Positions 11,793-31,993 of a stretch of DNA of 35,115 nt are shown piece by piece. The stretch is from Bryobacterales bacterium. GTDB lineage: Bacteria; Acidobacteriota; Terriglobia; Bryobacterales; UBA6623. The stretch covers positions 1 to 35,115 of the forward strand of contig JAJDWM010000743.1 in NCBI GenBank assembly GCA_022825595.1. The letters run 5' to 3'. Position 1 is the stretch's first letter; each line of letters opens with the position of its first letter. The position numbers and the translations under genes are program-made. Under the pieces are notes generated by a model. That model was not told the DNA's origin. It saw nothing but the letters and a program-made list of their open reading frames with translations, and searched no databases.

Positions 11793-11808
11793 CGCTCAGC
11801 CGACTCCC

Positions 11809-11844
11809 AAAAAAATAAGCGGCGGGGCCGTCGCCCCGCCGCTT
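11809..11844 (-). terminator. Intrinsic (rho-independent) terminator
   Basis: 12-bp perfect stem aagcggcggggc / gccccgccgctt with a 4-nt loop, followed on the minus strand by A and a U7 tract. Confidence 0.85.
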
Positions 11845-11904
11845 CGTGCAACCACAGGTTCACAAGGAGAAGGAGTTCGAACCGTAGTTTCTGTCAGCAC
11901 TACC
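11809..11904 (-). ncRNA. Candidate ~95-nt structured RNA (sRNA or leader) with anti-SD loop
   Basis: Minus strand shows hairpin GUAGU..ACUAC, hairpin GGUUC..GAACC enclosing CUCCUUCUCCUU, then the terminator. No credible ORF here. Not matched to a named family. Confidence 0.45.
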
Positions 11905-12017
11905 TAAGACGATTGAGCGGGCCGATCTTATGGCAGGATCTGAAACAATTTCCGCACTATTTCTGACCACAGCCCGCACGAGAGCACTGAACTGGGGGCC
12001 AAACCGCCCAAGAGGCC

Positions 12018-13706: not shown

Positions 13707-13823
13707 ATGAGCATCAAGCCTACCCGCGGGTCGCGCGGCATGTCAAGAACTGCGCTGGGGCGAGAGGGCTGTGGCCGACGCAGCGATTGCGCGGGCGCGC
13801 AGGAATGGGCCAAGGTAGAGGGC

Positions 13824-16541
13824 GTGAGGGGAATCGGGTCCTGGTCAGCCGGACTGCTCGCAGCGGCCGCGCTTGCCGCCCCGCAACCATTGCGGGCGGA
13901 CGCGGGGGAGGACTTCTTCGAGCGCCGAATCCGGCCGCTCCTTGCCGAGCAGTGCGCACAGTGCCACAACGAGCAGCTGCTGTCTGCCGGCATCGACATG
14001 CGCCGGCCGGAGACGCTGATCGGCACAGCCGTGATCGCAGGCGACGAGTCCAGCCCCTTGATCCGGGCCGTGCGTTACGAGAGCGCCGTAAAGATGCCGC
14101 CCACCGGCAGGCTGCCCCAAGAGAAGATTCGGCTATTGGTCGATTGGGTGCGCATGGGCGCGCCTTGGCCGGGACACGAGACCGCCGACGGAGAGGACGA
14201 CGGACTCCCAGAGGAGACCGTGCACAGCGACCACTGGGCATTCCAGCCCTTGCGGGATCCGGAACCGCCCGACATCGGCAGTTCCCGGTGGCCGCGCAAC
14301 GGCATTGACCGCTTCGTGCTGGCCCGCCTTCGATCGGCCGGCCTGGATCCCGCGCCGGCAGCGGCACCGCTGACCCTCCTGCGGCGCGCAAGGTACGGCC
14401 TGACAGGCCTGCCGCCCCTCCCGGGCGAGGTCGAGCGCTTCGGGGAGCCGGGCGCTCCGCCAAGCTTCGGGCAGCTCGTCGACGCGCTCCTCGCAACGCC
14501 CCAGTACGGAGAGCGATGGGCCCGCCACTGGCTCGACGTGGCGCGCTTCGCAGACTCCACTGGAGTGGACGAGGACCATCCGTTCGGCAACTCTTGGCGC
14601 TACCGCGACTATGTCGTGCAGGCCTTCAGCGAGGATCTGCCGTTTGACCAGTTCATCCGCGAGCAGGTCGCGGGCGACCTGCTCCCGCCCGCCGCTGGAG
14701 AGCCCGTCAATGCGCGCGGGATCGTGGCGACAGGGTTCCTCGCGGTGGGCCCCATGGCCTTGGCCCAGCGCGACCCCGTGCAGAAGCGCTACGACGTTGT
14801 CGACGAGCAGATCGACACCCTGACGAAGGCCTTTCTGAGCCTGACAGTGGCGTGCGCTCGCTGCCACGACCACAAGTTCGACCCGATCCTGACCTCGGAC
14901 TACTACGCCCTGGCCGGGATCTTTGCCAGCACGCGCACATTCGAGGACTGGCGCAGGAACGGTTCGCGCTACCTCAAAGAGCCCCTGGTCGAAGCAGGGG
15001 AGTACGAGGCCTACAGGCAGCACGCCTCGAAGGTGGACCGGTTGCAGCGCGTGCTGCGCATGGCCCGCCAAGCGGCCGTGATGCGGTATCTGCTCAACGG
15101 TCCGGGCATGCGCATCGCTGAGATGATGCTGGCCGCGGCCCAACCCCTACGGCCGTTCGGACCAGACGCGAAGACCGTCGCATGGCTGCGGACCTACCTC
15201 ACGCCCCGGCCTGTGCCCCGCCCTCACTTGGCGGTCTGGAGAGAGGTCGGCGCTGACCGTGCGCGGGCCGCCGAGCAGTACCAATCAGACCTGCTCGAAA
15301 TCCTGGAAGGGCGAGCCGCGGCAATTGGTAGCTGGGTCGGCAGGGCCTCTGCGGCGCTCGACGCGAGCGATGGAGCGGATCTCCCGGAACTGCCGGTCGA
15401 ACTGCCGACATCTCTGCTGTTCCGCGACCTTGCCGAAGAGGGAGGTCCGCTGTCTGCGGACTTCGAAGATGCACGGCTGCGGCTGGCCCCACCCGATCTC
15501 GCCCTCGCAGAGGGCCTTGAGGCGCGCCTGGCGAGACTGCGCGAGGGGGCGCCCGCAGAGCCGCCCATGGCCAATAGCGTCGCCGATGGCGACGTCGTCC
15601 GGCAGCGAATCTTCCGGCGAGGGCAGCACCGGAGCCCTGCGGCTGCCGTCGAGAGGCGATTCCCCCTCGTGCTGGCCGGAAACGGCCAACCGGAGATCCG
15701 AGAGGGCAGCGGGCGCCGGGAACTGGCCGACTGGATCGCGTCCAAGAGCAACCCTCTCACCGCCCGGGTAATCGTGAACCGCGTTTGGCAGTGGCACTTC
15801 GGCGAGGGCATCGTGCGCACGCCGAACAACTTCGGCACTCGCGGCGAGGAGCCGACCCATCCCCTCCTGCTCGACTGGCTGGCAAGCCGGTTTGTGGCGA
15901 GCGGCTGGTCGATAAAGGCGCTCCAGCGCCTGATCCTCGAATCGGCCACCTACCGGATGGGCAGCGGAGTCTCGGACCATGCACACCGGGTGGACCCCGA
16001 CAACGCGCTGCTGTCGCGCTTCCCCCGCCGAAGAATGTCCATCGAGGAACTGCGGGACAGCTACCTGCACGTCAGCGCACGGCTCGACTCGGCGGTGGGC
16101 GGGGACACCGACCTGGGTTCGGGCAGCCTGCCCGAATTCGAGCGCAACAACCGTCGCATCGATCCGGACACGCACCGGCGGCGCACGCTGTACCTACCGC
16201 TCATGCGCAACAAGCTACCGGCCCTGCTGCGGCTGTTCGACTTCGGCGATGCGACCACCTCTGTCGGAACGCGGTCCTCGACGAACGTCGCGCCGCAAGC
16301 CCTGTACCTGCTGAACAGCGGCTTCGCGGCCGCATCGGCCGCTGGGGTCGCGGGACGGCTGGCCGGCCCGTCCCGGGACAGGGCGGAGATGGCGTACCGA
16401 CTGATCCTCGGTCGGCCCCCGTCGCGAGAGGAGACGTCGCGGGCGGAGCGCTACGTGCGTTCGCGCGGCGGCGGCGAGCAGGGATGGAGCAGCCTGTGCA
16501 AGCTGCTCCTCGCATCGAACGAGTTCCACCACATCGAATGA
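13824..16541 (+). CDS. Planctomycete cytochrome c (PSCyt1) + DUF1549 + DUF1553 domain protein
   Basis: Signal peptide; DFFERRIRPLL..CAQCH; HWAFQP; YGERWARHWLD.ARFADS; CARCHDHKFDP; NPLTARV.VNRVWQ.HFG.G; P.HP.LLDWLA; PQALYLLN. Start uncertain (GTG 13824 chosen). Confidence 0.92.
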   Translation: MRGIGSWSAGLLAAAALAAPQPLRADAGEDFFERRIRPLLAEQCAQCHNEQLLSAGIDMRRPETLIGTAVIAGDESSPLIRAVRYESAVKMPPTGRLPQEKIRLLVDWVRMGAPWPGHETADGEDDGLPEETVHSDHWAFQPLRDPEPPDIGSSRWPRNGIDRFVLARLRSAGLDPAPAAAPLTLLRRARYGLTGLPPLPGEVERFGEPGAPPSFGQLVDALLATPQYGERWARHWLDVARFADSTGVDEDHPFGNSWRYRDYVVQAFSEDLPFDQFIREQVAGDLLPPAAGEPVNARGIVATGFLAVGPMALAQRDPVQKRYDVVDEQIDTLTKAFLSLTVACARCHDHKFDPILTSDYYALAGIFASTRTFEDWRRNGSRYLKEPLVEAGEYEAYRQHASKVDRLQRVLRMARQAAVMRYLLNGPGMRIAEMMLAAAQPLRPFGPDAKTVAWLRTYLTPRPVPRPHLAVWREVGADRARAAEQYQSDLLEILEGRAAAIGSWVGRASAALDASDGADLPELPVELPTSLLFRDLAEEGGPLSADFEDARLRLAPPDLALAEGLEARLARLREGAPAEPPMANSVADGDVVRQRIFRRGQHRSPAAAVERRFPLVLAGNGQPEIREGSGRRELADWIASKSNPLTARVIVNRVWQWHFGEGIVRTPNNFGTRGEEPTHPLLLDWLASRFVASGWSIKALQRLILESATYRMGSGVSDHAHRVDPDNALLSRFPRRRMSIEELRDSYLHVSARLDSAVGGDTDLGSGSLPEFERNNRRIDPDTHRRRTLYLPLMRNKLPALLRLFDFGDATTSVGTRSSTNVAPQALYLLNSGFAAASAAGVAGRLAGPSRDRAEMAYRLILGRPPSREETSRAERYVRSRGGGEQGWSSLCKLLLASNEFHHIE

Positions 16542-16572
16542 GGCAAACCTCCGAACCGCCCGGTGTTAGGGT

Positions 16573-18015
16573 GTGGCTGTGATGGGGCCTGCCTTGCCAG
16601 TCCTCTCAAGGCGCGCGATGCTCCGCCGCACGGCCTTGGGGTTCGGCTCGCTAGGGCTCGCTGCGCTGCTGCACGAGAGCGCCCAAGCCGACGCGGCCAG
16701 CGGCGAGGGCCCCTTGGCCGTCCGCACGCCGCACTTTCCGGCGCGGGCCAAGCGCGCCATCTTCCTGTTCATGCACGGAGGCGTCTCGCACGTAGACACG
16801 TTCGACCCGAAGCCGCTGTTGGAGCGCGACCGCGGCAAGCCGCTGCCCATCAAGCGCGGGCTGACCTTCAATCCGGGCCAGGCGGGGGGCCTGATGCCCT
16901 CGCCGTGGAGATTCGAGCCGCGCGGCCAGAGCGGGACTCCCGTCAGCGAACTGTTCCCGGAGATCGCGCGCTGCGCCGACGACCTGTGCGTGATTCGCTC
17001 CATGGTCGGGGAAGGCGTCGACCACGGAGCCGCGATGCTGCAGCTGTTCACCGGGACGTTCTCGTTCTCGCGACCGAGCCTCGGGGCATGGACACTCTAC
17101 GGACTGGGCACGGAGAACCAGAACCTCCCCGGCTTCGTGACCATCAAGCCCACGCAGTGGCAGGGCGGCGACAAGCTCTTCGCGGCGAGCTTCCTCCCCG
17201 GCGTCTACCAAGGCACTCCGATCGGCTCGTCGCCGATGGCCGTCGACGACATCATCGAGAGTCCCGTGAAACACGTCCTGCCGCGGGGGGACAGCCCGCG
17301 CGGCCAGCGCCTCGAGCTCGAATTCCTGCGCGAGATGAACCGGCGGCACGCCGAGGACCGCAGGCTGGATCCGCGGCTGGAGGCCCGGATCCAAGCCTTC
17401 GAGCTGGCCTTCCGCATGCAGGCCGAGGCGCCTGAAGCCTTCGACATCTCGGGCGAGACCGAGGCTACCCGCAGGCTCTACGGACTCGACGAGGAAGTCA
17501 CGCGCGACTTCGGATGGCAGTGCCTGCTGGCCCGCAGGCTGAGCGAGCGCGGCGTGCGCATGGTCCAGGCTACCCATTCCGGCGTGGAGGAGAAGTGGGA
17601 CCACCACGGCGACATCCTGCGTCTGCACCCGATCCGCGCGCGTGAGGTGGACAGGCCGATCGCGGGCCTCATCAGGGACCTGAAGGGCCGCGGCCTGCTT
17701 GAGGAGACGCTGGTGGTGTGGGGCACGGAGTTCGGTCGCACGCCCTTCTCCGAAGGATCGGACGGGCGCGACCACAACCCCTACGGGTTCTCGGTCTTCA
17801 TGGCCGGAGGGGGCGTCAAGGCCGGCAGCGTGTACGGGGCCACGGACGAGTTCGGCTACCACGCTGTCGAGGACCGCATGCACATCCACGACCTGCACGC
17901 GACCGTGCTGCACCTGATGGGCCTGGACCACGAGCGGCTGACCTACCGCCACAGCGGCCGGGAGTTCCGCCTGACGGACGTGGCAGGCCGCGTGGCCCGC
18001 AAAGTCCTGGCCTGA
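16573..18015 (+). CDS. DUF1501 domain protein with Tat signal
   Basis: LSRRAML Tat motif; AKRAIFLFMHGGVSHVDTFDPKP; CLLARRL.ERGVR; WD.H; WGTEFGRTP; GRDHNP; HIHDLHAT. Standard partner of the upstream DUF1549/1553 gene. Confidence 0.93.
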   Translation: MAVMGPALPVLSRRAMLRRTALGFGSLGLAALLHESAQADAASGEGPLAVRTPHFPARAKRAIFLFMHGGVSHVDTFDPKPLLERDRGKPLPIKRGLTFNPGQAGGLMPSPWRFEPRGQSGTPVSELFPEIARCADDLCVIRSMVGEGVDHGAAMLQLFTGTFSFSRPSLGAWTLYGLGTENQNLPGFVTIKPTQWQGGDKLFAASFLPGVYQGTPIGSSPMAVDDIIESPVKHVLPRGDSPRGQRLELEFLREMNRRHAEDRRLDPRLEARIQAFELAFRMQAEAPEAFDISGETEATRRLYGLDEEVTRDFGWQCLLARRLSERGVRMVQATHSGVEEKWDHHGDILRLHPIRAREVDRPIAGLIRDLKGRGLLEETLVVWGTEFGRTPFSEGSDGRDHNPYGFSVFMAGGGVKAGSVYGATDEFGYHAVEDRMHIHDLHATVLHLMGLDHERLTYRHSGREFRLTDVAGRVARKVLA

Positions 18016-20702: not shown

Positions 20703-22103
20703 TCAGTCCTCCTCGGGGTAGAGGACAAACTCCGGATAGGCCTCGATGCCCAGTTCCCCGACGTCCTGGCCGTGGGCCTCGACGCCCGCGGAGACGCGTG
20801 CGCCCATCGTGTGCTTGAGCCCGAGCCAGAACAGCATCGAGAGGCCGAACGCATACGCAGCAATCGCCAGAATCCCGACGAGCTGCACGACAAGATCGCC
20901 GCCGGCCGCAATGCAGACGGCGAGCGTGCCCCACACGCCGCAAATCAGGTGGGCCGGAACGGCGCCCACCACATCGTCAACCTTCATCTGCTCGAGGAAC
21001 TTCATACCGGCCACGCACAGCACGCCGCCGACGGCTCCGATGACCACCGCCCAGTAGTGCTCCGTGATGTCCGGGGCAGCGGTGATCGACACCAGCCCGG
21101 CGATCGTGCCGTTAAGCCCGGCCATCAGGTCGACCCTGCCCAGGATCGGCCGCGACACGAGGATGGCGGTGAGCACTCCGGCGGCCGCCGCGAGGTTGGT
21201 GTTCGCGAAGATGTTGCTGACGGCCACGGCGTCGACCGCACCGCCAAGGGCCAGCTGGGACCCGCCGTTGAAGCCGAACCAGCCCAGCCAGAGGATGAAC
21301 ACGCCGAGGGTGACGCCGGGCACGTTCGACGGTGGCGTGGCCTTGACGCTCCCATCGGTCCGGAACTTCCCCTTGCGTGGCCCTACCACGAGTGCGCCAG
21401 CAAGGGCAGCCCAGCCTCCCGTGCTGTGGACGATGGTCGATCCGGCAAAGTCCATGAAGCCCATTTCGGCGAGCCAGCCGCCGCCCCACGTCCAAGCGCC
21501 GATGACGGGGTAGATGAAGGCCGTCATGACCGCGACGAACACGAAGAACGACCAGAGCTTGACCCGCTCGGCTAACGTGCCTGACACGATCGAGGCGGTC
21601 GTGGCGACGAAGACCATCTGGAAGAACCACATGGACATCTGTGCCGCACCGGTCCCGAGGACCGCCTCCGCAGCCCCCTCCTGGCCGCCCAAGAGGCCGA
21701 CCTCGTCCGCCGTCGTGCCGAACAGCAAGCGGACCTGTCCGAGCCAGCCGCCCGCTTCGACGCCGGTGTACATCAGGTTGTAGCCGATCAGGTAGAAAGT
21801 CAGTCCCGCGATTGAGTAGAGGCCGATGTTCTTCAGGCAGATCATCGAGGCGTTCTTCGTTCGCACGGACCCGGCCTCCAGCATCGTGAACCCAGCCGCC
21901 ATCCACATCACCAAGGCGCCCCAGATCAAGAATGCGAATGTGTTCAGCACGAACTGGGACTCGCCGTCGACGGCCGCGCGGGCCTCCACAGGTGCGGCTG
22001 CCAGCGCCGTGAGCAGCGCGGCGGCGACTCCAGCAGCGCGGGCCAGCCGGCGCATCGAGCCCCAAGCCAACGTGAGCAGTCGATAGGTCGTTCCTTCGTT
22101 CAT
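20703..22103 (-). CDS. amtB: Ammonium transporter (Amt)
   Basis: ATG 22103 with AGGAGG RBS; GFTMLEAG.VR.KN, FFQMVF, DFAGSTIVH, ILWLGWFGFNGGS, VDDVVGA.PAH (both pore histidines present). Confidence 0.95.
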   Translation of the reverse strand: MNEGTTYRLLTLAWGSMRRLARAAGVAAALLTALAAAPVEARAAVDGESQFVLNTFAFLIWGALVMWMAAGFTMLEAGSVRTKNASMICLKNIGLYSIAGLTFYLIGYNLMYTGVEAGGWLGQVRLLFGTTADEVGLLGGQEGAAEAVLGTGAAQMSMWFFQMVFVATTASIVSGTLAERVKLWSFFVFVAVMTAFIYPVIGAWTWGGGWLAEMGFMDFAGSTIVHSTGGWAALAGALVVGPRKGKFRTDGSVKATPPSNVPGVTLGVFILWLGWFGFNGGSQLALGGAVDAVAVSNIFANTNLAAAAGVLTAILVSRPILGRVDLMAGLNGTIAGLVSITAAPDITEHYWAVVIGAVGGVLCVAGMKFLEQMKVDDVVGAVPAHLICGVWGTLAVCIAAGGDLVVQLVGILAIAAYAFGLSMLFWLGLKHTMGARVSAGVEAHGQDVGELGIEAYPEFVLYPEED

Positions 22104-22439
22104 CGATGTCCTCCTGCTTCCATTCGATCCCACGGTGCCCGCCAACGCGGCGGCGGAAAGAACATGGTCGCCTAGACTTTAGCAATCATTGCCGACGCGA
22201 GCGGGCGGCCGTTCTCTCCGCACAGCTGACAGCGGCCCGGCAACGGCCGCCCAAGACGGCGGCCCCCCAGCAGTGCGGCGCGGGCCCGGCAATGTTAGCA
22301 TCCTATAAGCAGCGAGCCGGAAGATGCGCGCCCGCACAGACCTTGCACGAAACCGGGTCGGCCAGCCTGCCTTTCCGAAGGGAGCACGCCCGCCCGCCAG
22401 TTCCGCGCCCATCAACCAATCCTTCGCCATGAGGTAGCC

Positions 22440-23624
22440 TTGGTCAGACGATCAGTCACTTTGTCCGCCAAACCCCACCGAATTCTGGTGGTCGACGACG
22501 AACCGGACTTGGAGCGCCTCGTGCGCCAGCGCATGCGCCGCGACGTCCGCGCCGGCCGGTACGTGCTGGACTTCGCCCGAAACGGGATCGAGGCCCTCGA
22601 GAAGCTCAAGAGAGAGGACGCCTTCGACATGGTCCTCTCGGACATCAACATGCCGCTCATGGACGGGCTGACCCTGCTGCAGCAGATCCCGAACGTCAGC
22701 CCGGACGTGCGAGCCGTCATCGTGTCGGCCTACGGCGACATGCGCAACATCCGCATCGCGATGAACCGCGGCGCTTTCGACTTCATCACGAAGCCGATCG
22801 ACTTCAAAGACCTGCGCGTCACAATCGCGCGCACGCTGAAGAACTTGGAGGAATGGCGAGAGGCACTCCGGTCCCGTGACCGATTGGTCGTGCTGGAGAA
22901 CGAGCTGGAGGTGGCGCGCAGAATGCAGAAGTCGATTCTGCCCACCGAGTTCCCAGATCACCCGGGTGTGGGAATCTACGCCAATATGCAGCCCGCCCGG
23001 GCAATAGGCGGAGACTTCTACGACGTGGCCAACCTTAGTGGCGGACAGTTCGGCGTCGCAATCGCCGATGTTTCCGGCAAGGGGATTCCAGCGGCCCTGT
23101 TCATGATGTCCAGCCGAACACTCCTTAAGGGAGCGGCCGTCGGCGGATCCACCTCTGCCGAAGTGCTTCAGGAGACGAATCGGGTCCTGAGCCGCGACAA
23201 TGCATCCATGATGTTCGTCACGCTGCTCTACGCGGTGTGCGACGCGGCCACTGGGGAGTTCAGCTATGCCTCCGGCGGACACGAACCGCCGCTGCTGGTG
23301 CGGGCCGACGGAGAGTGCAACTTCCTCCCCCTGACGGACGGTCTCGCCTTGGGGGTGATGGAAGACTTCGATTACTCGGCGAGCCGCGCGCGGCTCGAGC
23401 CCGGCGACACCATGGTGCTGTACACCGACGGCGTCACGGACGCGCAGAACCAGGCAGGCGAGCACTTCGGCGCGGAACGTCTGTGGGACCTCTTCAACGA
23501 CGCGCCGCCCGCCGATGAGAAGGACGCCGTCGATCGAATCTTCGGCGCCGTCCGAGAGTTCTCCACGCATGCGGAGCAGTTCGACGACATCACGTGCGTT
23601 GCGGTCTCCCGGAGGGCCTGCTGA
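22440..23624 (+). CDS. Response regulator: REC domain fused to SpoIIE/RsbU-type PP2C phosphatase
   Basis: REC: ILVVDDEP, LSDINMP, SAY, FITKP. PP2C: GGDFYD, IADVSGKG, YTDGVTD, DDIT. Confidence 0.94.
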   Translation: MVRRSVTLSAKPHRILVVDDEPDLERLVRQRMRRDVRAGRYVLDFARNGIEALEKLKREDAFDMVLSDINMPLMDGLTLLQQIPNVSPDVRAVIVSAYGDMRNIRIAMNRGAFDFITKPIDFKDLRVTIARTLKNLEEWREALRSRDRLVVLENELEVARRMQKSILPTEFPDHPGVGIYANMQPARAIGGDFYDVANLSGGQFGVAIADVSGKGIPAALFMMSSRTLLKGAAVGGSTSAEVLQETNRVLSRDNASMMFVTLLYAVCDAATGEFSYASGGHEPPLLVRADGECNFLPLTDGLALGVMEDFDYSASRARLEPGDTMVLYTDGVTDAQNQAGEHFGAERLWDLFNDAPPADEKDAVDRIFGAVREFSTHAEQFDDITCVAVSRRAC

Positions 23625-23626
23625 CC

Positions 23627-24043
23627 GTGGCCGCGACCATCAAGCTGACGCTGCCAACGCAGATCTCCGCGCTACGGCAGATGGAGGAGGCGGTGGAAGC
23701 CTTCGGCGCGCAGGAGGACTGGCCCCCTCGGCTGGCGTTCCAGATGCAGCTTGTCCTCGAAGAGCTGGCATCCAACGTCATCCGCCACGGCTTCGGGGAA
23801 GAGGGGCACGAGTTCGAGATCTCAGTCTCCTCGGATCCGGAGGCGGTCACCGTCGAAGTCGTCGATGCCGCGCCACCGTACAACCCGATCACGGAGACCC
23901 CGGAACCGGATTTGGACGCAGAGTTGGAAGACCGCCAGATCGGCGGGCTCGGCGTGTTCCTGGTACGCGACGTGGCGGATGAGATGAGCTACCGCCGAGA
24001 GGACGGCAAGAACCGCCTGGTCATCGTCAAGCGGAGGGATTGA
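23627..24043 (+). CDS. RsbW/SpoIIAB-like anti-sigma factor Ser/Thr kinase (HATPase_c_2)
   Basis: GTG 23627 with GGAGGG upstream; EELASNVIRHG N-box, VVDAAPPYNP, RQIGGLGVFLV, DEMSYRRE.GKNRL. Confidence 0.92.
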   Translation: MAATIKLTLPTQISALRQMEEAVEAFGAQEDWPPRLAFQMQLVLEELASNVIRHGFGEEGHEFEISVSSDPEAVTVEVVDAAPPYNPITETPEPDLDAELEDRQIGGLGVFLVRDVADEMSYRREDGKNRLVIVKRRD

Positions 24044-25218
24044 TGCGGCGCTGCTGGCTCGCGGCGCTGGTGTGGGCGCTGGCCTGGGGTCCTGAGGGCG
24101 GGGGCATCGCCCGTGCGCAGGACGACGGCGTCACCGAGGACTCCATCCTCTTCGGACAGTCGGCGGCTTTTAGCGGGCCCACGGGACTGCTGGGAACGGA
24201 CTACCGGGCAGGTGTGCTCGCCGCCTTTGCCGAAGCCAACGCCCGCGGGGGCGTCCACGGGCGACGGCTTGATCTGCTCTCGCTGGACGACGGCTATGAG
24301 CCCGAAGAGGCGATCAACAACACCCACAGGCTGCTCGACGAGGAGCGCGTCTTTGCCCTGATCGCCTACGTGGGTTCGCCGACTGCGCGCGCCACCGTCC
24401 CCATCGCGGCCGCCCAGGACGTGCCCTTCGTCGCCCCGCTCACTGGGGCGGCGTTCCTGCGCGACGAGCAATGGACGAACGTCGTCAACCTGAGGGCCTC
24501 GTATGCCCAAGAAATGGCCGAGATCGTGGAGAGGCTAGTCCTAGATTTGGGCATCGTGCGGATCGGAGTGCTCTACCAGGACGATTCGTTCGGCCTTGCA
24601 GGCCTGACGGGAGTGGAGGACGCGCTCGCCAAGAGAGGGCTGGCGACGGTCGCGCGCGCCGTGTACCCGCGCAACACCTCGGCGATCAAGACGGGCGTTC
24701 TAGAGCTGCGCGAGGCCGACCCCCAGGCCGTCCTGCTGATCGGCGCCTACAGCCCGGTCGCGACGGCAGTCGCCTGGTCACGCCACCTCGGCATGGATGC
24801 CGTGTTCGCTACCACGTCATTCGTCGGAGGGAACGCCCTTATCGACCGGTTGCGCAGCTTCGGGCAGTTCGGGCTCTACGTCACCCAGGTCATTCCTTCG
24901 CCAACGTCCGACTCGCTCGCGGCGCGGCAGTACCGGCGGGCGATGGCGGCCCACTCATCCGGCGTAAAGCCGGGATTCGTGTCCTTCGAAGGCTATCTGG
25001 CGGGACGGCTCGCAATTGAGGGTCTGGAACGCTCGGGACAGGCGGTTGACCGCGTGGTGTTCCTTGAAAACCTGCTGGACGGCGAGCCATTCAACCTGGG
25101 AGGTGTCCGGCTGAGCTTCTCTGCGCGCCGCAACCAAGGCTCGGACCGGGTGTATGTCAACCTGATCGCGGAGAATGGGCAGATCCGCACGGTCCAGACA
25201 CTGGCGGAGGATCCCTAG
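24043..25218 (+). CDS. Periplasmic substrate-binding protein, LIV/branched-chain amino acid type (orphan, no permease)
   Basis: Signal peptide; GQSAAFSGP, NARGGVHGRR, DDGYEP, VFALI..VGSPT, RASY, YQDDSFG, FEGYLAG. ATG overlaps the upstream stop (TGATG). Confidence 0.92.
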   Translation: MRRCWLAALVWALAWGPEGGGIARAQDDGVTEDSILFGQSAAFSGPTGLLGTDYRAGVLAAFAEANARGGVHGRRLDLLSLDDGYEPEEAINNTHRLLDEERVFALIAYVGSPTARATVPIAAAQDVPFVAPLTGAAFLRDEQWTNVVNLRASYAQEMAEIVERLVLDLGIVRIGVLYQDDSFGLAGLTGVEDALAKRGLATVARAVYPRNTSAIKTGVLELREADPQAVLLIGAYSPVATAVAWSRHLGMDAVFATTSFVGGNALIDRLRSFGQFGLYVTQVIPSPTSDSLAARQYRRAMAAHSSGVKPGFVSFEGYLAGRLAIEGLERSGQAVDRVVFLENLLDGEPFNLGGVRLSFSARRNQGSDRVYVNLIAENGQIRTVQTLAEDP

Positions 25219-25226
25219 GCCGACCG

Positions 25227-27416
25227 ATGGAGAAGGCGAGCGCGATGTTCGGGTCCATCAAGGCGCAACTGTCTCGCCGTCGGCTGGTCCGCGTCCGCCG
25301 GAGCATCGCTGTACAGCTGTACGTCGGCCTCGGCGGTGCTGTCGCCGTCACGCTGGCGGCCAGCGCGGTGGGCTGGATGACCTTCAACCAGGTTGGGAAC
25401 GAGCAGGCCCGGGTCAACGACCGAAACGTTCCGGACATGGCCGCCGCGTTCACGGTTGCACAGCGCATCGGTGCACTCGTGGACACCGCCCCCCGGCTGA
25501 CCGTGGCCTCGAGCGAGGCGGAGTTCGAGTCTGTGCGCGCCGAGATCGGGCGCGAGCGCGAGGCTTTCGAGGCACGCCTGGACGAACTGGGCGAGAGGCG
25601 CGGTCAGAGCGAGGGCGTCCGCCGTGTCCGCGTGTGGGGTCGTGCCATGACCACCAACATTGAGGCGATCGAGCAGTCCGAGATCGAGCTGTTGCGCCTG
25701 GGCGGCACGCTCGATGCACAGAGGGAGCAGATCCGCACGGTCAGCGGTCGCCTGTCCCAGCAGCTGGAGACCTTGGTCGATGACCAGTTCTTCTTTGCCA
25801 TGACCGGCTACCGGGACCTCGAATCGCCGCCGATGGAACGCTCAGTGCCTTTCCTCGATTCGGAGCTGGACCGCTTCCGTCAGATCGCGGCCCTCAAGGA
25901 GGGGGCCGCCATTGGCGACCAAATCCTGGCGAGCCTCTTCAGCGTCTCGCACGCGGACCGCGTGATCCCGCTCCGGGAGCGCTACGAAGCGGCCTCCAGC
26001 CAGATCGGCCGAAGCCTCGCGGCCCTCGCAGACGACGAGCGCAGCCAAGCGGTGGCCGCCAACTTCGAGGAACTGTTCAACCTGACCTTCACTTCCGGCG
26101 GCGTGTTCGAGACGCGCTCTGAACAGCTCGAGATGGAAACACGGCAGGCTGAGCTGCTCGCGGAGAACCGTGAGGTTGCCTCCAACCTGATCACGGAGAT
26201 CGAGTCGTTGGTGTCCGTGCTCAGCAGCGGAACGCTGGCATCGACTCGCTCCAGTTCCGAGACAGTGCGGACAGGGCGCAATTTGCTGCTTGCCATGAAC
26301 CTCTTCAGCGTTGCAAGCGCAGTCATGATCGGCTGGCTCTTCATCGGGCGCCATCTGCTCTCGCGTCTGGAGCGCCTCTCAACGCGCATGCGGCGCATGG
26401 CCATGGGTGACCTCGAGTCCAAGGTCGAGCGCGAAGGGACGGACGAGATCGCCGAGATGGCAGAGGCGCTGGAAGTCTTCCGCCGGCACTCCCTGGAGGT
26501 ACAGCGGCTGAACTTGGTGGAGGAACTCGCCGAAGACCTCAGCGACAAGAACGCCAAGCTGGAGTCGGCGCTGGCGGACCTGCGCAAGGCGCAGGACCAG
26601 ATCGTGATGCGCGAGAAGCTGGCCGCGCTCGGCGAACTCACGGCCGGTGTGGCCCACGAGATCAAGAATCCTCTGAACTTCGTCAAGAATTTCGCCGAGG
26701 TCTCCGAAGAGCTCCTTGAGGAGCTTCAAGAACTGCTCCCTGACCCGGGCGAGCCCGTGGAAGAAGAGGACCAGGAGGAGGTCGACGACCTGATGGACGA
26801 TCTGGCCGGCAACCTGCAGCTCATTCGCCAGCACGGCGAGCGCGCGGACGCGATCGTCCGCGACATGCTGATGATGGGCCGCGGGTCCGACGAGAAACGA
26901 CCGACGAACCTCAACAGCCTTGTCCGGGAGCACGCCAATCTGGCCTACCACAGCGCCCGGGCCACCGATGCGGACTTCCAGCTGCACATCGAGCAGGACT
27001 ACGACGAGCGTCTGGACACGACCGAGGTCGAAGTCGTGCCCCAGGATGTAGGGCGTGTTGTGCTGAACATGGTCGGCAACGCCTGCCACGCGACCGACGA
27101 CAAGCGGCGGTCGGGAGTGGAGATGTACCTGCCGACCCTTCAGCTCAGCACGCGACTGGACACCGACAAGGTGCAGATCCGCATCAGGGACAACGGCTGC
27201 GGAATGCCGGACGATGTGGTCGAGAAGATCTTCAACCCGTTCTTCACCACCAAGCCGACCGACAAGGGCACTGGGCTCGGGCTGGCGCTGTCGAACGACA
27301 TCGTGCGCAAGCACGGCGGCCGGATTCTGGTCGACACGGAACCCGGCGAGGGCACACAGATGACCGTGGAAATTCCAACCGCGCCGGGGTCAGCGGGCCC
27401 GGCGCTTGACGCGTAG
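25227..27416 (+). CDS. Membrane sensor histidine kinase with large helical periplasmic domain (TorS-like), HAMP, HisKA and HATPase
   Basis: Two TM helices flank a ~300-aa helical domain; HAMP (..GDL......GTDEIAEMAEAL..FR); GVAHEIKNPLN; NMVGNACHA; DNGCGM; FNPFFTTK; GTGLGL. TorS similarity is judged from recalled pattern only. Confidence 0.9.
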   Translation: MEKASAMFGSIKAQLSRRRLVRVRRSIAVQLYVGLGGAVAVTLAASAVGWMTFNQVGNEQARVNDRNVPDMAAAFTVAQRIGALVDTAPRLTVASSEAEFESVRAEIGREREAFEARLDELGERRGQSEGVRRVRVWGRAMTTNIEAIEQSEIELLRLGGTLDAQREQIRTVSGRLSQQLETLVDDQFFFAMTGYRDLESPPMERSVPFLDSELDRFRQIAALKEGAAIGDQILASLFSVSHADRVIPLRERYEAASSQIGRSLAALADDERSQAVAANFEELFNLTFTSGGVFETRSEQLEMETRQAELLAENREVASNLITEIESLVSVLSSGTLASTRSSSETVRTGRNLLLAMNLFSVASAVMIGWLFIGRHLLSRLERLSTRMRRMAMGDLESKVEREGTDEIAEMAEALEVFRRHSLEVQRLNLVEELAEDLSDKNAKLESALADLRKAQDQIVMREKLAALGELTAGVAHEIKNPLNFVKNFAEVSEELLEELQELLPDPGEPVEEEDQEEVDDLMDDLAGNLQLIRQHGERADAIVRDMLMMGRGSDEKRPTNLNSLVREHANLAYHSARATDADFQLHIEQDYDERLDTTEVEVVPQDVGRVVLNMVGNACHATDDKRRSGVEMYLPTLQLSTRLDTDKVQIRIRDNGCGMPDDVVEKIFNPFFTTKPTDKGTGLGLALSNDIVRKHGGRILVDTEPGEGTQMTVEIPTAPGSAGPALDA

Positions 27417-27430
27417 GTCGAACGCCGCCC

Positions 27431-27769
27431 TCAGGAGGAGACTCTGGCCACCGCGGCGTCCCGGCTGCCGAACAGCGGGATGATCTTCTCAAAGCCGCTG
27501 ATCGCAAAGACCTCGCGGATCGGATGTCCCAAGCCGCACATGGCAAAGCGCTTGCCCTGACTCTTGAGGCTCTTGCGGACCAGCAGCACGGCGCGCAGGC
27601 CGGCACTGCTGATGTAGGCGAGACCCTCGCAGTCGACCACCATCCCGCGGTCAGCGCCTCCGGCCAGTCGCATGAGCGTCCGCTCGAATTCCCTGGCATT
27701 CGTGCTGTCCACGCGTGTGCAGGCTTCCGCGATCACCACGTCTCCCGACCGAGTGGTTTCGAGTTCCAT
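27431..27769 (-). CDS. STAS-domain anti-sigma factor antagonist (RsbV/SpoIIAA-like)
   Basis: 112 aa; RVDSTNA, VVDC..L.YISSAGLR (phosphorylatable Ser), EVFAISGF; AAGGAG RBS. Confidence 0.93.
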   Translation of the reverse strand: MELETTRSGDVVIAEACTRVDSTNAREFERTLMRLAGGADRGMVVDCEGLAYISSAGLRAVLLVRKSLKSQGKRFAMCGLGHPIREVFAISGFEKIIPLFGSRDAAVARVSS

Positions 27770-27847
27770 CTTCCGTGTCTCCTTGGATCCTTGGGCCTGG
27801 CGGCTACGCTGTCCCCGGGCGCTGGGCTGTCGGCTCAGCGCCTAAAC

Positions 27848-27860
27848 AGGTATAGCAGAT
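27848..27860 (-). promoter_or_regulatory. Motif ATCTGCTATACCT upstream of first STAS gene
   Basis: 12/13 identical to the motif upstream of the second STAS gene; resembles an extended -10 (TGnTATACC). Confidence 0.45.
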
Positions 27861-27906
27861 CGCGCGCCGCGCCTCAGCCAGACCTTCCAACAACGGCAAA
27901 GCAGCG

Positions 27907-28245
27907 TCATCGGCGGATCGCTGCAACTGCCTCCTCGCGGGTGTGATAGGTCGGTATGACCCTGTCGAACCCGGTGATCGCGAACACCCTCTGCACCTGG
28001 CGGTCGAGCTCGCACATGACCAAGGGGGTCTTCCGGCGCGAGAGGGCCCTCGACACGGCCAGCAGGGCCCTCAGCCCCGCGCTGCTGATGTAGGAGAGCT
28101 TCTTGCAGTCAACCACAACACCTTGGTCGCCCTCCCCGACCGAATCCTGAACTGCAACCTGAAACGCAAGGGCGTTCTCGCTGTCAAGCTCCCGCCACGC
28201 TCCGACCGTCAGGATTCCCTGTGTACGATGCGTTGGCAAGTCCAC
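27907..28245 (-). CDS. STAS-domain anti-sigma factor antagonist (second, tandem paralog)
   Basis: 112 aa; ELDSENA, VVDC..L.YISSAGLR, RVFAITGF. Confidence 0.92.
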   Translation of the reverse strand: MDLPTHRTQGILTVGAWRELDSENALAFQVAVQDSVGEGDQGVVVDCKKLSYISSAGLRALLAVSRALSRRKTPLVMCELDRQVQRVFAITGFDRVIPTYHTREEAVAAIRR

Positions 28246-28295
28246 CGCCGTAAGCTCGATGCTGCGCGACGACCCTGCCGTCCCGCTGCCTGACT

Positions 28296-28308
28296 AGGTA
28301 TACCAGAT
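28296..28308 (-). promoter_or_regulatory. Motif ATCTGGTATACCT upstream of second STAS gene
   Basis: 12/13 identical to 27848-27860. Confidence 0.45.
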
Positions 28309-28352
28309 TCCGCCAGTCCCGGGGAGGCACAGAAGGGCGCTAGAGTGGCTGC

Positions 28353-29405
28353 ATGCAGAGGCGACTCCGGGCGGTCGGAATCGGCGCAGGCTACTTCTCG
28401 GGCTACCAGTACGAAGCCTGGGGCAGGATTCCGGAGGTGCGGCTGGTCGCGATGCACAACCGCACCGAGTCCAAGGCCCGCCGGCTCATGCGGATCCACG
28501 GGATCCCGCGCTACTACGGGGACTGGCGGGAGATGATCGCCCACGAGCGGCCCGACTTCGTGGATGTCATCACTCCGCCGGAGACGCACGCCGAGATGTG
28601 CGCTTTCGCCGCTGGCCGGGGTGTGGGAGTCATCTGCCAAAAGCCCCTGGCTCCGACCCTGGCGGAGAGCGCTGCAATCGTGCGACAGGCCAAGGACGCC
28701 GGGGTGCGCTTCATGGTCCACGAGAACTTCCGCTGGCAGCCTTGGTACCGCAAGATCCGGGCCGTTCTGGACGGCGGCGCCCTCGGCCGTCCGACTCACA
28801 TGTACTTCCGGATGCGCACCGGCGACGGCTGGACGGAAGACGCCTACCTAGACCGGCAGCCATTCTTCCGGGACTATCCCAGACTGCTGGTGTACGAGAC
28901 TGCTGTGCACTTCATCGACACGTTTCGCTACCTCTTGGGGGAGGTCACGGATGTGTACGCGCGGCTGCGCCGACTGAACCCGGCGATCCGCGGAGAGGAC
29001 GAGGGGCAGATCCTGCTGGCCTTCGCCGGGGGGGCAACCGCGATCATCGACGCGAACCGCTACAACGAGGCCGAGACGCCCAATCCCCGCTTTACGTTCG
29101 GGGAACTGCGGCTGGACTGCACAGGGGGCCACCTTGCCATGGAGGCGGACTCCTCGATGCGAATGAAGCCTTTGGGCCAGCCCGTTCGCGCTGTGGACTA
29201 CGACCGCGAGGACCGCAATTTCGCGGGGGACTGCGTGTACGCCCTGCAGCGGCACTTTACGGACCGCTGGCTCGCCGGCCTACCGTTCGAGAGCAGCGGC
29301 GAGGACTACCTCCGCACGCTCGCGGTGGTGGATGCAGTCTACGAGTCGGCTCGGTCGCGCCAAGCGGTTCGGCTGGGGGCCACCGAAGGCCCGCGGAGCC
29401 TATGA
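28353..29405 (+). CDS. Gfo/Idh/MocA family oxidoreductase (cytoplasmic)
   Basis: GIGAGYF, DVITPP..H, ICQKPLAP, HENFRWQPWY, ETAVHFID. Confidence 0.92.
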   Translation: MQRRLRAVGIGAGYFSGYQYEAWGRIPEVRLVAMHNRTESKARRLMRIHGIPRYYGDWREMIAHERPDFVDVITPPETHAEMCAFAAGRGVGVICQKPLAPTLAESAAIVRQAKDAGVRFMVHENFRWQPWYRKIRAVLDGGALGRPTHMYFRMRTGDGWTEDAYLDRQPFFRDYPRLLVYETAVHFIDTFRYLLGEVTDVYARLRRLNPAIRGEDEGQILLAFAGGATAIIDANRYNEAETPNPRFTFGELRLDCTGGHLAMEADSSMRMKPLGQPVRAVDYDREDRNFAGDCVYALQRHFTDRWLAGLPFESSGEDYLRTLAVVDAVYESARSRQAVRLGATEGPRSL

Positions 29406-31993
29406 TTGGGGGCGCCATGGGCCGCTCCGTCCCGCAAGCCGGCCAGCTGCCCGAGCCGAGGCTGCGCTTCCCTGCTTGCGCCGTGGCCTGGGTGGGCGCG
29501 GTGGCGTTGGGGCATGCACAGCCCCCGCAGGGCTACTCGATTCCGACGGTAGACCTGGCGCACGAGGAGCACCGCCAAGTGGTTGTGGACCGCGAGCCGG
29601 GCCAGTACCTTGGGCATCCCTCGACGCTGCTGCTCCCCGACAACCGCACAATACTGGTCGCATATCCCATGGGGCATGGCAGGGGGGCCATCGTCTACAA
29701 GAAGAGTCCAGACGGCGGGCTGACTTGGAGCAGCCGGCTCGCCACGCCCGAAAACTGGGCCACGTCGATGGAGGTCCCGACGCTGTTCCGCTTGGTCGCC
29801 CCGGACGGGACGGCCCGCGTCCTGCTGTTCTCGGGCAAAGCCGCGGGCATCCGCGTGGCGCAGTCTGACGACGAGGGCCGCACTTGGTCCGCGCTGCGGC
29901 CACTGGCGACGCCGGGCCCGCCATTCGGCGGCATCGTGGCCATGTCGTCCGTGGTGGAGCGCTCCGACGGGGCGCACATGGCCTTCTTCCACGACGACGG
30001 CCGCTGGCTCCGCGACCCGCCCGAACATTCCGGCGGCGCCCGTTTCGCCGTCTACAAGACCGTCTCCACGGACGGCGGGCAGACCTGGGCCCAGCCTGAG
30101 GTAGTGACGCGGCACCCCGAGGCGCACCTTTGCGAGCCCGGAGCCGTGCGATCGCCGGACGGCCGCCAGATCGCACTGCTCCTGCGCGAGAACAGCCGCA
30201 GGCTGAATTCCTTCGTGGTCTTCTCCGACGACGAGGGCGAGACGTGGAGCGAGCCCCGCGAGCTGCCGGGTTCGCTGACGGGGGACCGTCACGTGGCACG
30301 GTACGCGCCCGACGGCCGCCTCTTCGTCAGCTTCCGCGACCGGACTCACGTCAGCCCGACTCACGGCGACTGGGTTGGCTGGGTCGGCACCTACGGCGAT
30401 ATCGCGGCGGGCCGTCAGGGCCAGTATCGTGTGCGCCTCATGGACAACCTCAAGGGGACCGACACCGCCTATCCGGCAGTGGAGCTGCTGCCCGACGGGA
30501 CATTCGTGGCCACGACCTACGGCCACTGGACGGCGGGCGAAGAGCCCTACATTGCAAGCGTGCGCTTCAAGCTCGAGGAGCTGGACGCGCGGGCCGCAGG
30601 GGCCGGCCCTGAGCCGGCCTCGATGGTGCGGGAGGCAGAGCGGCCGCCGGTCGCACCGCAGGCCCGCGAGGGCAACCCGAACGTTCTGTTCATCGGGGTC
30701 GACGACCTAAACGACTGGATCCTCGAGCGTCACACGCCCCTGAAGATGCCGAACCTGATGCGTCTTGCGCGCAGAGGGGCCCTCTTCCGGCGCGCTTACG
30801 CCGCTTCGCCGGCCTGCAATCCGTCGCGCGTCGCTCTGTTGACCGGCCTGAGCCCTTCCGCCACGGGGGTATACGGGAACCGCTCGGACTGGCGCGGGGC
30901 GCTGCCATCGACAGTCACTCTTCCGCGGCATTTCATGAACCACGGCTACCGCGTGGAGGGCGCTGGGAAGATATTCCATCACCATCTCAACAGCGCCTTC
31001 CACGACGACGAGTCGTTCCACCGCTTCGTGAAGATGCAGCTCGACCCGATGCCGCCCACGAAGCTGAACAGGATTCCGGAGGTTGCCAGCCTGAACTTCG
31101 ACTGGGGCCCGTGGCCCTTGGATGAGTCGGCCACCCCGGACGTGCGCTCGGTGGAGTTCGGGATCGACTTTCTCTCGCGGCGGCACGAGCAGCCCTTCTT
31201 CCTGGCGATCGGCCTGTTCCGGCCGCACATGCCATTCCACGTCCCCCCGAAGTACTTCGCAGAGTACCCGAGCGACGCGGTGGCGATGCCTCGCGCACCG
31301 GCGGACGACCTAGATGACATCCCGGAGGGCGGAATGGCGCTGCTTCGCGAGAAGCAGCACTTCATGCGGGCCATCCGCGCCGGAGAGGCGCGAAGCCCCG
31401 GCACTTGGAGGGAGGCCGTGCGAGCCTACCAGGCCAGCTGCACGTTCGCGGACCACCAGATCGGGCGGCTGCTGGCAGCCCTTTCGCGCTCTGGGCACGC
31501 CAGCAACACCGTCGTGGCGCTGTGGTCGGACCACGGCTACCACCTCGGCGAGAAGGGCCACTGGGAAAAGTTCGCCCTGTGGGAAAAGTCCACGCGCGTG
31601 CCGCTGGCCCTGGTGGCCCCGGGGCGCATTGAGCCTGGAACCGTGGTTGACGCGCCGGTGTCGCTGCTGGACCTGTACCCGACACTGGTGGAACTCTGCG
31701 GGCTGCCTGAGAGGAAGGGGCTCGAGGGTGAGAGCCTGCTGCGCGCGATTCGGGGACAATCGCCCCAACGGTCGGTCGCGATGACCTACCAGAGGGGGAA
31801 CCACGCGGTCCGCTCGAGCCGCTGGCGCTACATCCGGTACGCGGACGGCAGCGAGGAACTCTACGACCACAGGAGCGACCCCGACGAGCTCTCCAACCTG
31901 GCGGGGACCGGCGAGCACGCGGACGTCATCCGCTCGCTGCGCCGCTGGCTGCCGCGCAAGGACGCCCCGACCGTCCCGGACCTGCGGCGGTGA
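29402..31993 (+). CDS. Fusion: BNR/Asp-box sialidase-like beta-propeller + sulfatase (iduronate-2-sulfatase/choline-sulfatase-like)
   Basis: ATG 29402 overlaps the upstream stop (ATGA). Asp-boxes SPDGGLTW, SDDEGRTW, STDGGQTW, SDDEGETW; then NVLFIGVDDLND, CNPSRVALLTG (CxPxR), SDHGYHLGEK, EELYD. Confidence 0.9.
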   Translation: MIGGAMGRSVPQAGQLPEPRLRFPACAVAWVGAVALGHAQPPQGYSIPTVDLAHEEHRQVVVDREPGQYLGHPSTLLLPDNRTILVAYPMGHGRGAIVYKKSPDGGLTWSSRLATPENWATSMEVPTLFRLVAPDGTARVLLFSGKAAGIRVAQSDDEGRTWSALRPLATPGPPFGGIVAMSSVVERSDGAHMAFFHDDGRWLRDPPEHSGGARFAVYKTVSTDGGQTWAQPEVVTRHPEAHLCEPGAVRSPDGRQIALLLRENSRRLNSFVVFSDDEGETWSEPRELPGSLTGDRHVARYAPDGRLFVSFRDRTHVSPTHGDWVGWVGTYGDIAAGRQGQYRVRLMDNLKGTDTAYPAVELLPDGTFVATTYGHWTAGEEPYIASVRFKLEELDARAAGAGPEPASMVREAERPPVAPQAREGNPNVLFIGVDDLNDWILERHTPLKMPNLMRLARRGALFRRAYAASPACNPSRVALLTGLSPSATGVYGNRSDWRGALPSTVTLPRHFMNHGYRVEGAGKIFHHHLNSAFHDDESFHRFVKMQLDPMPPTKLNRIPEVASLNFDWGPWPLDESATPDVRSVEFGIDFLSRRHEQPFFLAIGLFRPHMPFHVPPKYFAEYPSDAVAMPRAPADDLDDIPEGGMALLREKQHFMRAIRAGEARSPGTWREAVRAYQASCTFADHQIGRLLAALSRSGHASNTVVALWSDHGYHLGEKGHWEKFALWEKSTRVPLALVAPGRIEPGTVVDAPVSLLDLYPTLVELCGLPERKGLEGESLLRAIRGQSPQRSVAMTYQRGNHAVRSSRWRYIRYADGSEELYDHRSDPDELSNLAGTGEHADVIRSLRRWLPRKDAPTVPDLRR

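Follow-up and report, generated by a model that had tools for sequence, protein, structure and literature searches.

How is a solute outside the cell reported to a partner switch that has no sigma factor beside it? The question is raised by an operon and two STAS genes at positions 22,440 to 28,245 of contig JAJDWM010000743.1, from a Bryobacterales bacterium (Acidobacteriota; assembly GCA_022825595.1); the whole stretch analysed, 35,115 nucleotides (nt) of the forward strand, is called the window here. An earlier reading of the letters alone (the sequence-only reading) had seen in these genes a chain from an extracytoplasmic binding protein, through a TorS-like kinase, to a switch of the RsbU/RsbW/RsbV kind. 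The present analysis indicates that they probably form a two-component-fed partner switch with sensing in the style of TorT/TorS, and that they are one copy of a conserved five-gene cassette with an extra STAS gene. The genes are:

22440-23624, + strand: REC-PP2C, a receiver joined to a PP2C/SpoIIE-type Ser/Thr phosphatase (394 amino acids; Response_reg 2.1e-24, SpoIIE 8.7e-54)
23627-24043, + strand: RsbW-like serine kinase (138 amino acids; HATPase_c_2 1.5e-24, a score taken on a longer open reading frame starting at 23594)
24040/24043-25218, + strand: secreted type-I (LIV-BP-like) solute-binding protein, SBP (392 amino acids; Peripla_BP_6 1.9e-51)
25227-27416, + strand: membrane histidine kinase (729 amino acids; HAMP 6.5e-10, HisKA 2.2e-08, HATPase_c 2.9e-24)
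27431-27769, - strand: STAS1, single-domain (112 amino acids; STAS 6.4e-15)
27907-28245, - strand: STAS2, single-domain (112 amino acids; STAS 1.4e-18)

Domains were assigned with Pfam, and NCBIfam models were scored against their own cut-offs. Pfam agrees with the sequence-only reading on the identity and position of the REC-PP2C, the RsbW-like kinase, the SBP, the HAMP kinase and the two convergent STAS genes, and the tight junctions that it had listed can be read directly from the DNA. The REC-PP2C gene ends with TGA at 23622-23624 and is followed, after 2 nt, by the GTG start of the RsbW gene at 23627; the TGA of the latter (24041-24043) overlaps the ATG of the SBP gene at 24043 (TGATG; -1 nt); and the TAG of the SBP gene (25216-25218) lies 8 nt from the ATG of the kinase gene at 25227. 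A GGAGG-like motif precedes each of these three junctions. The kinase and STAS1 genes converge, with stop codons 14 nt apart, and 137 nt separate STAS2 from STAS1.

The same set of genes recurs far outside the Bryobacterales. Related loci were taken as the best 80 of 519 confirmed kinase relatives in contigs sampled at one genome per species; gene kinds were counted in them by tblastn with the window proteins and neighbours within 7 kb, and the 80 loci are not mutually independent. The histidine kinase was present in all 80, the SBP in 77, the REC-PP2C in 74, the RsbW-like kinase in 71 and a STAS protein in 70. All five kinds occurred together at 70 loci, and at 63 of these they stood on one strand in the order STAS-REC-RsbW-SBP-HK (HK, histidine kinase). 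Conserved synteny, for which a neighbourhood search had been proposed as a check, was thus found. Of the ten loci with an incomplete set, contig ends truncate five; the other five are full-length but lack some of the parts. The phylum labels, two of them looked up and the others assigned from general knowledge, are Chloroflexota (55), Actinomycetota of the class Acidimicrobiia (14), Pseudomonadota (5), Acidobacteriota of the order Bryobacterales (4) and Latescibacterota (1), with one locus unassigned; the Bryobacterales-labelled loci have STAS downstream and convergent, as in the window. Judged by these synteny counts, the arrangement is far beyond chance. The cassette proteins are 40-70% identical across the five phyla, and the cassette has apparently spread horizontally.

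Closer to the source, near-full-length relatives of the kinase were found in 22 of the 24 genomes sampled from the same genus (one of them carrying an in-frame TAG); the remaining two hold one partial kinase copy and matches to the kinase core only, respectively. No match covered the sensor in any of 16 genomes that represent other genera of the order. Three gene contexts are seen within the genus: a FAH-Amt pair divergent from the operon, together with two STAS genes, in four genomes including the window's; two ADH genes upstream; and ADH-ADH-glnE divergent from the operon, in 6 of 21 loci.

What the cassette would sense with is best judged from the binding protein and the kinase. The N terminus of the SBP is a basic-hydrophobic signal peptide that ends in the cleavage motif ARA-Q. 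Its best solved relative is 4kv7 (1.9e-56; 34% identity), to which its model (pLDDT 90.1) is similar with a TM-score of 0.87, and its nearest folds are three structural-genomics LIV-BP-like proteins, 4kv7, 3lop and 4m88; no ligand is named in the titles of these entries, and a literature search on their codes gave nothing relevant. Mean column identity is 68% for the SBP (65 homologues from several phyla) as against 46% for the kinase sensor, a pattern that, in the alignments, fits one conserved ligand.

The kinase is laid out as a first transmembrane segment (residues 27-53), a periplasmic all-helical sensor of about 290 residues (~56-346), a second transmembrane segment (353-374), HAMP, HisKA and HATPase_c, and its catalytic motifs comprise H477 in AHEIKNP, N618 of the N box, DNGCG (G1) and GTGLGL (G2). 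In TorT/TorS of E. coli and Vibrio, a periplasmic binding protein docks on an all-helical kinase sensor. Sequence profiles place the cassette kinase near TorS at scores below their cut-offs: the Pfam TorS_sensor_domain model reached 20 bits where 27 are required (E 5e-4), and the NCBIfam TorS model (TIGR02956) aligned to residues 32-450 at 3.6e-54, with 184 bits against a cut-off of 676.5. A model of the sensor (residues 56-346, built with 81 homologues; pLDDT 89.3) returned TorS sensor domains as all of its top six Foldseek matches, the first four of them chains of TorS-TorT complexes (E 6e-7 to 1.5e-6; TM-scores 0.73-0.83). On this modelled structure the kinase sensor has a TorS-type fold. 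The resemblance to TorS is in the sensor only, because Pfam finds no REC or HPt domain in the kinase; the description of the kinase as TorS-like is therefore borne out for the sensor fold and not for the hybrid architecture of TorS. The sensor-domain family is mid-sized: at E<=1e-30 its profile matches 176 of 1.84 billion cluster representatives, and at E<=1e-10 it matches 692.

Structure prediction of the SBP with the sensor gave a complex score of 0.58, as against 0.01 for the best of three controls; three runs agreed in 100% of contacts, with partner pLDDT of at least 90. Of 80 solved complexes 58 cleared the pass mark, as did 2 of 110 mismatched pairs; those that cleared it with a score of 0.60 or less include only 7 of the 80 solved complexes but both of these mismatches, so this result is weak support for docking. 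Taken with the coupling of the two genes, the prediction makes sensing through the binding protein likely.

In the other half of the cassette, the residues on which a partner switch would depend are largely in place. The receiver carries D19, D20, D68, S96 and K118, D68 being the putative phospho-acceptor. The SpoIIE match spans 190 of 192 profile positions, the PP2C blocks GGDFYD, DVSGKG, GGH, YTDG and FDD are all present and at least 90% conserved among 75 relatives, and REC-PP2C as a whole is 56-72% identical to its relatives in other phyla. Across 69 sequences the STAS motif YISSAG is conserved to at least 90%; its S55, which we take to align with SpoIIAA S58, is kept in both STAS1 and STAS2. 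The RsbW-like kinase keeps its N box (E..N) and G2 box (GGLG), whereas in its G1 box the D-x-G-x-P-F shared by at least 90% of 61 family members is replaced by D-A-A-P-P-Y. Ala or Ser stands at the G1 Gly position in all 20 same-genus copies examined, and the deviation is for that reason a fixed lineage trait rather than a lesion. The sequence-only reading had judged all catalytic and phospho-acceptor motifs intact, which holds for REC, PP2C, the histidine kinase and STAS and fails at the RsbW G1 box.

The two STAS proteins differ in their affinities. STAS1 is 38-62% identical to the STAS proteins of other loci and, by these alignments, is orthologous to the lone STAS protein of other phyla; STAS2 is 28-47% identical to them and has diverged, being 40% identical to STAS1. 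A second STAS gene is confined to the window and three genomes of the genus (G018, G020 and G007), while elsewhere a single STAS gene is the first gene of the operon.

We infer the binding steps, the phosphotransfer steps, the ligand, the sign and the output of the following scheme. The secreted LIV-BP-type SBP would capture a small solute and, in the manner of TorT with TorS, dock on the kinase's periplasmic four-helix sensor of TorS type; the kinase itself is classical rather than hybrid. The kinase would then set the phosphorylation of D68 in REC-PP2C and so alter its phosphatase activity, in either direction; the pairing of kinase and receiver rests on their co-location, since a REC-PP2C gene accompanies the kinase in 74 of the 80 loci. 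The sign of this step cannot be assumed, because in the RsfS/RsfR, RsfB, RsbW1/SigF system of Mycobacterium smegmatis phosphorylation of the receiver lowers phosphatase activity, according to the accessible part of the report (PMC10950880). PP2C would remove, and the RsbW-like kinase add, phosphate on S55 of STAS, and unphosphorylated STAS would bind RsbW, so that RsbW or STAS would be released from, or recruited to, a target. That target would most likely be a non-sigma protein, with the gene neighbourhoods pointing towards the uptake or assimilation of nitrogen.

On the first of these two points, Pfam detected neither a sigma factor nor a DNA-binding regulator in the module when the window was scanned, as the sequence-only reading had noted, and for sigma factors tblastn agrees. 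The source genome has 12 Sigma70_r2 matches and one Sigma70_r3 match; the lone r3-bearing gene encodes an RpoD-like r2-r3-r4 sigma factor, cut by a contig end. A tblastn search with this sigma factor returned no match at E<=1, either for the window or for 116 of 117 loci (1.7 Mb; its own locus, L094, being excluded). The output is probably a protein unlike a sigma factor.

The nitrogen context, which the sequence-only reading did not take up, starts from the gene divergent from the operon:

20703-22145, - strand: 'marine subtype' ammonium transporter, Amt (480 amino acids; Ammonium_transp 6.4e-97 over residues 72-470)

On the NCBIfam marine-subtype model (TIGR03644) this protein scores 512 bits against a cut-off of 514. 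Alignments of its orthologues begin at residues 20-43, and its true start probably lies near 22055 (Met31). It has no glnK partner, and a canonical amtB-glnK pair lies on another contig of the genome (C4). Its closest solved relatives are 8qj3/8qpf (9.3e-66) and 6eu6 (5.3e-61), as against about 1e-28 for AmtB; 6eu6 is the ammonium receptor Ks-Amt5. The accessible part of PMC11152129 identifies 8qj3/8qpf as the ammonium receptor Sd-Amt1. Residues were compared through a HMMER alignment in the numbering of that paper. The window Amt and ten Amts linked to related cassettes keep F25, E29, K44, N45, S107 and N269, with Ser for T104, and have Leu or Ile in place of Asp-48 (Leu in the window) and Phe in place of Tyr-119; the window Amt thus keeps the N1 site, Thr being changed to Ser, and has lost the N2 site. 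The amtB of the source genome carries the Tyr typical of assimilatory transporters. Receptor function cannot be read off the signature, because Amts bearing the N1/N2 signature include proven transporters, as stated in the part of PMC11152129 available. Ammonium_transp is the sole domain that Pfam finds in the window Amt, which has no fused transducer.

Among the 80 loci, an Amt gene stands within 7 kb of the cassette in 18, ten of these Amts being 65-69% identical to that of the window and eight distant (26-33%). A Glu_synthase-like gene was found in 12 loci, 11 labelled Acidimicrobiia and one (L041) Dehalococcoidia; at L032 (12292-16065, - strand) it belongs to a cluster of Gln-synt_C, GATase_6/7, GXGXG, Glu_synthase and DAO genes beside the cassette, a type of cluster reminiscent of the N-methylglutamate pathway by which methylamine is used. 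In 15 loci there is a circularly permuted ATP-grasp gene no farther than 7 kb off. We also observed, directly downstream of the cassette at L021 (9491-13381) and L036 (9147-13940), the series ATP-grasp, marine-type Amt and Alpha-E, followed in L036 by a transglutaminase gene. A marine-type Amt orthologue is carried by 22 of the 24 genomes of the genus (truncated by an in-frame stop in one of them). Five cassette genomes from five lineages all carry a marine-type Amt, non-adjacent in at least two; this co-occurrence may reflect habitat only.

Proteins that join an Amt to partner-switch domains occur in nature. The best 120 longer relatives of the window Amt all carry signalling-type domains in a precomputed Pfam list, and six among these have the order Amt-(GAF/PAS)-SpoIIE-HATPase_c_2; the complete receptor signature, Asp-48 and Tyr-119 included, is kept in 12 of 12 fused proteins aligned. 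One metagenome locus (L128, 3989-7856, + strand) encodes a 1158-residue Amt-GAF-PAS-PP2C-HATPase_c_2 protein, with a STAS gene (119 amino acids) 31 nt later; beyond the STAS gene lie a convergent HisKA kinase gene and three single-domain receivers. A metagenome scan with the fusion returned 80 loci, the whole fusion being found in L128 only and most of the others matching its PP2C-kinase part. A SAR11 fusion of Amt, HAMP and a PPM phosphatase is read by its authors as an ammonium sensor, in the accessible part of PMC11796062. Judging by these fusions, nature does contain ammonium receptors that feed PP2C/RsbW/STAS switches lacking a sigma factor; a similar wiring of the cassette to an Amt would be a possibility that the Amt-PP2C-RsbW fusions followed by a STAS gene suggest.

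We regard a link between the cassette and nitrogen or Amt as a testable lead with about one chance in five of being right. In its fuller form, a PII-independent nitrogen-status switch, the SBP and kinase would report an external nitrogen compound and the RsbW/STAS pair would act post-translationally on acquisition proteins, for instance by docking on Amt or with the ammonium occupancy of Amt as a second input, while a paralogous cassette would act on the GlnE/glutamine synthetase branch; this we hold to be rather doubtful.

That paralogue lies on contig C462 of the source genome, its kinase 57% identical to that of the window, in the ADH-ADH-glnE context described above. Its STAS gene was not found in the source genome, and the contig breaks where that gene should lie. 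Single STAS genes on contigs C424 and C557 were considered for the part and rejected, not being of the cassette type. C462 (locus L093) is a near-perfect palindrome centred at about 13430, the paralogous kinase gene scoring identically at its two positions, 11905-14007 (+) and 20858-22960 (-), and the list of open reading frames being a mirror image of itself. The contig has the look of a hairpin artefact of assembly, by which the sequence past two uncharacterised genes is lost. Directly downstream of the paralogous kinase are two open reading frames with no Pfam match (10250-11407 and 11435-12604, both - strand; 385 and 389 amino acids), which are also found, at 97% identity, in G001 (L110). 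C424 holds a third, unrelated RsbW-like/STAS pair (RsbW-like gene at 1364-1891, - strand, of L095; STAS at C424:7532-7843) beside an MlaE permease gene.

Several observations weigh against the proposed scheme or its parts. Among the five full-length loci with partial sets, RsbW and STAS are both missing in L013, L023 and L028, STAS is missing in L029, and L041 consists of the SBP and kinase alone; the two halves of the cassette can therefore exist apart. The Ala at the G1 box makes the kinase activity and ATP binding of the genus RsbW proteins uncertain, as far as their sequences can tell. Since TorS-TorT is a solved complex (3o1h/3o1i/3o1j), the pass of the SBP-sensor prediction may reflect likeness to it. 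The sigma-factor query is blind to sigma factors of the extracytoplasmic function (ECF) type, and the source genome is only 87.8% complete. As for nitrogen, neither an Amt nor a Glu_synthase cluster is nearby in 50 of the 80 loci, and within the genus the Amt orthologue adjoins the cassette in only three genomes, lying about 5 kb away (upstream) in a fourth.

Could the genes nevertheless be unconnected, or connected otherwise? The SBP-kinase pair and the PP2C/RsbW/STAS set might be two unwired systems that met by chance, and five loci do hold only part of the set; such an accident is hardly credible when 70 of 80 loci have all five gene kinds side by side, 63 of the 70 in one fixed order across five phyla, when the junctions measure 2, -1 and 8 nt, and when the sole receiver domain beside the kinase is that on the PP2C. 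Alternatively, the SBP may be an ordinary component of an ABC importer that merely lies beside a kinase sensing its own signal directly. Its closest relatives by sequence and by fold are indeed named ABC-transporter binding proteins, but no ABC permease or ATPase domain was found among the open reading frames scanned in the window and eight representative loci, the SBP gene overlaps or abuts the kinase gene with the pair kept in 77 of 80 loci, and the only sensor known to act via a binding protein shares its fold with the modelled sensor. With the predicted complex and its clean controls, weak as that support is, these points make the importer explanation very improbable.

The remaining alternatives concern the output and the input. 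In a classical anti-sigma switch, RsbW would sequester a sigma factor encoded elsewhere and dephosphorylated STAS would free it, as in RsbV/RsbW/SigB. The HATPase_c_2 and STAS families are defined by anti-sigma systems (TIGR00377 is named 'anti-sigma factor antagonist'), and the source genome has 11 short Sigma70_r2 genes, presumably of the ECF type; ECF sigmas, however, are normally held by other classes of anti-sigma factor, no sigma factor like SigB, SigF or RpoD lies near any locus examined, the genome's only r3-bearing sigma is RpoD-like, and the cassette proteins stay 40-70% identical across five phyla whose sigma repertoires are very different. A switch of this kind is therefore improbable. 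We consider it unlikely, too, that the switch is coupled to ammonium, with the marine-subtype Amt as a second, ammonium input or as a docking target for RsbW/STAS in the way that AmtB is for GlnK. The lack of a glnK gene beside the window Amt when an amtB-glnK pair sits on C4, the kinship with Sd-Amt1 and Ks-Amt5, the N1 residues kept in the window and ten linked Amts, and the natural fusions (that of L128 with its STAS gene 31 nt on, and the SAR11 phosphatase fusion) all speak for such coupling. Yet the window Amt lacks the Asp-48 and Tyr-119 that 12 of 12 fused receptors keep, proven transporters are among the proteins with the N1/N2 signature (PMC11152129, in the part available), the Amt adjoins the cassette in no more than 10 of 80 loci and, within the genus, in a single clade, and the presence of an Amt in five of five cassette genomes may reflect habitat only. 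The two-component-fed partner switch with binding-protein sensing is the reading that we carry forward.

The DNA between the operon and the Amt gene holds one conserved element:

22296-22316, + strand: conserved 21-nt block with TATAAG, about 125 nt upstream of the REC-PP2C start

The block is invariant, except for one A/G change, in the four Amt-divergent genomes and is found nowhere else among 197 loci; on the strength of that conservation it is possibly part of the operon's promoter or leader. A scan for the sigma-70 promoter consensus over 21900-28500 gave 0 promoters, and a terminator scan of the same interval gave one terminator-like site, inside the kinase gene, which is no more than shuffled sequences give. 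Against the Amt/REC intergenic region Rfam returned osmY only, at 19.5 bits against a gathering score of 46.9, and no riboswitch known to Rfam. A sigma-54 promoter in the block, looked for by eye, was rejected on its GG-to-GC spacing, which is 8 nt and not 10.

Elsewhere in the window, an open reading frame for a GFO/IDH/MocA oxidoreductase (28353-29405, + strand) overlaps one of 1131 amino acids (28598-31993, + strand) in which Pfam domains, BNR and then sulfatase, start only at residue 418; the longer frame is probably over-extended at its 5' end, its real start lying after 29405. Genes for a cytochrome-like protein of the PSCyt2/PSD1 (DUF1549/DUF1553) kind and, after it, a DUF1501 protein lie at 13683-18015 (+ strand), a pair common in Planctomycetes-like genomes, and the window has several sulfatase and GFO-type oxidoreductase genes.

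Two-component-fed partner switches are known, nearly always ending on a sigma factor in one model organism. The cassette is shared by uncultured Chloroflexota, Acidimicrobiia, Acidobacteriota, Latescibacterota and Proteobacteria, and for that reason would be a widely used, unstudied route from an extracellular solute to a protein-level response. Its output is approachable by experiment through its placement near Amt, glnE and a glutamine-synthetase/glutamate-synthase-like cluster, through the receptor-like Amt and through the fusions; if true, the nitrogen link would add a new branch of bacterial nitrogen control beside PII/NtrBC. The suggestion that the system is undescribed stands in part. 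In the literature searched there was no description of these features in combination, of how widely the cassette occurs, of the missing sigma factor or of the nitrogen context, whereas two-component input to a PP2C partner switch has already been characterised.

The nearest precedent is the RsbK-RsbY-RsbV-RsbW-SigB system of Bacillus cereus, in which a sensor kinase reportedly phosphorylates a REC-PP2C that acts on a STAS antagonist opposed by RsbW; RsbK is said to be a hybrid kinase, located in the cytoplasm or membrane, that has no binding protein as partner, with SigB encoded in the cluster. The cassette shares this chain from kinase through REC-PP2C to STAS/RsbW, but has no sigma factor and would sense through an SBP and a TorS-type sensor. 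Similarly, RsfS/RsfR combines a membrane kinase that has an extracytoplasmic sensor with a REC-PP2C that dephosphorylates a STAS protein; unlike the cassette, in the accessible part of the description its sensor is CHASE3 without an SBP and its output is SigF (PMC10950880). The general linker model of Bradshaw and colleagues covers partner-switch phosphatases with kinase input, as far as the available part of that paper goes (PMC12143880). The Anabaena HenR protein and the STAS-glycosyltransferase All4160 form a PP2C/STAS phospho-switch with an enzyme as its output, in the part of PMC13555669 accessible; there STAS is fused to the target enzyme and the kinases are encoded elsewhere, whereas the cassette STAS proteins are single-domain.

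On the sensory side, the cassette kinase is like TorS (3o1h, 3o1i, 3o1j, 3i9y, 3i9w) in its modelled sensor fold (E 6e-7, TM-scores 0.73-0.83), but TorS is a hybrid whose REC and HPt domains feed the DNA-binding TorR, and the cassette kinase has neither domain. The cassette SBP belongs to Peripla_BP_6 (LIV-BP-like), and TorT is absent from its 33 sequence matches and its top 50 fold matches. Sd-Amt1 and Ks-Amt5 are closest to the window Amt, which retains their N1 ligands, but it has no fused transducer, lacks Asp-48 and Tyr-119, and adjoins the cassette only in certain lineages. For the output, HsbA, SypA and SiaC are reportedly non-sigma outputs of partner switches, and in the HptB-HsbR-HsbA system of Pseudomonas and CrsR-CrsA of Shewanella both in Gram-negative bacteria, a phosphorelay is said to run into a receiver-PP2C that works with a kinase of RsbW type and with a STAS protein, which can itself be the effector. 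In HsbR and CrsR, the REC, PP2C and kinase form one polypeptide with HPt input, whereas the cassette encodes the PP2C and the RsbW-like kinase in separate genes and carries a dedicated SBP and histidine kinase in the same operon.

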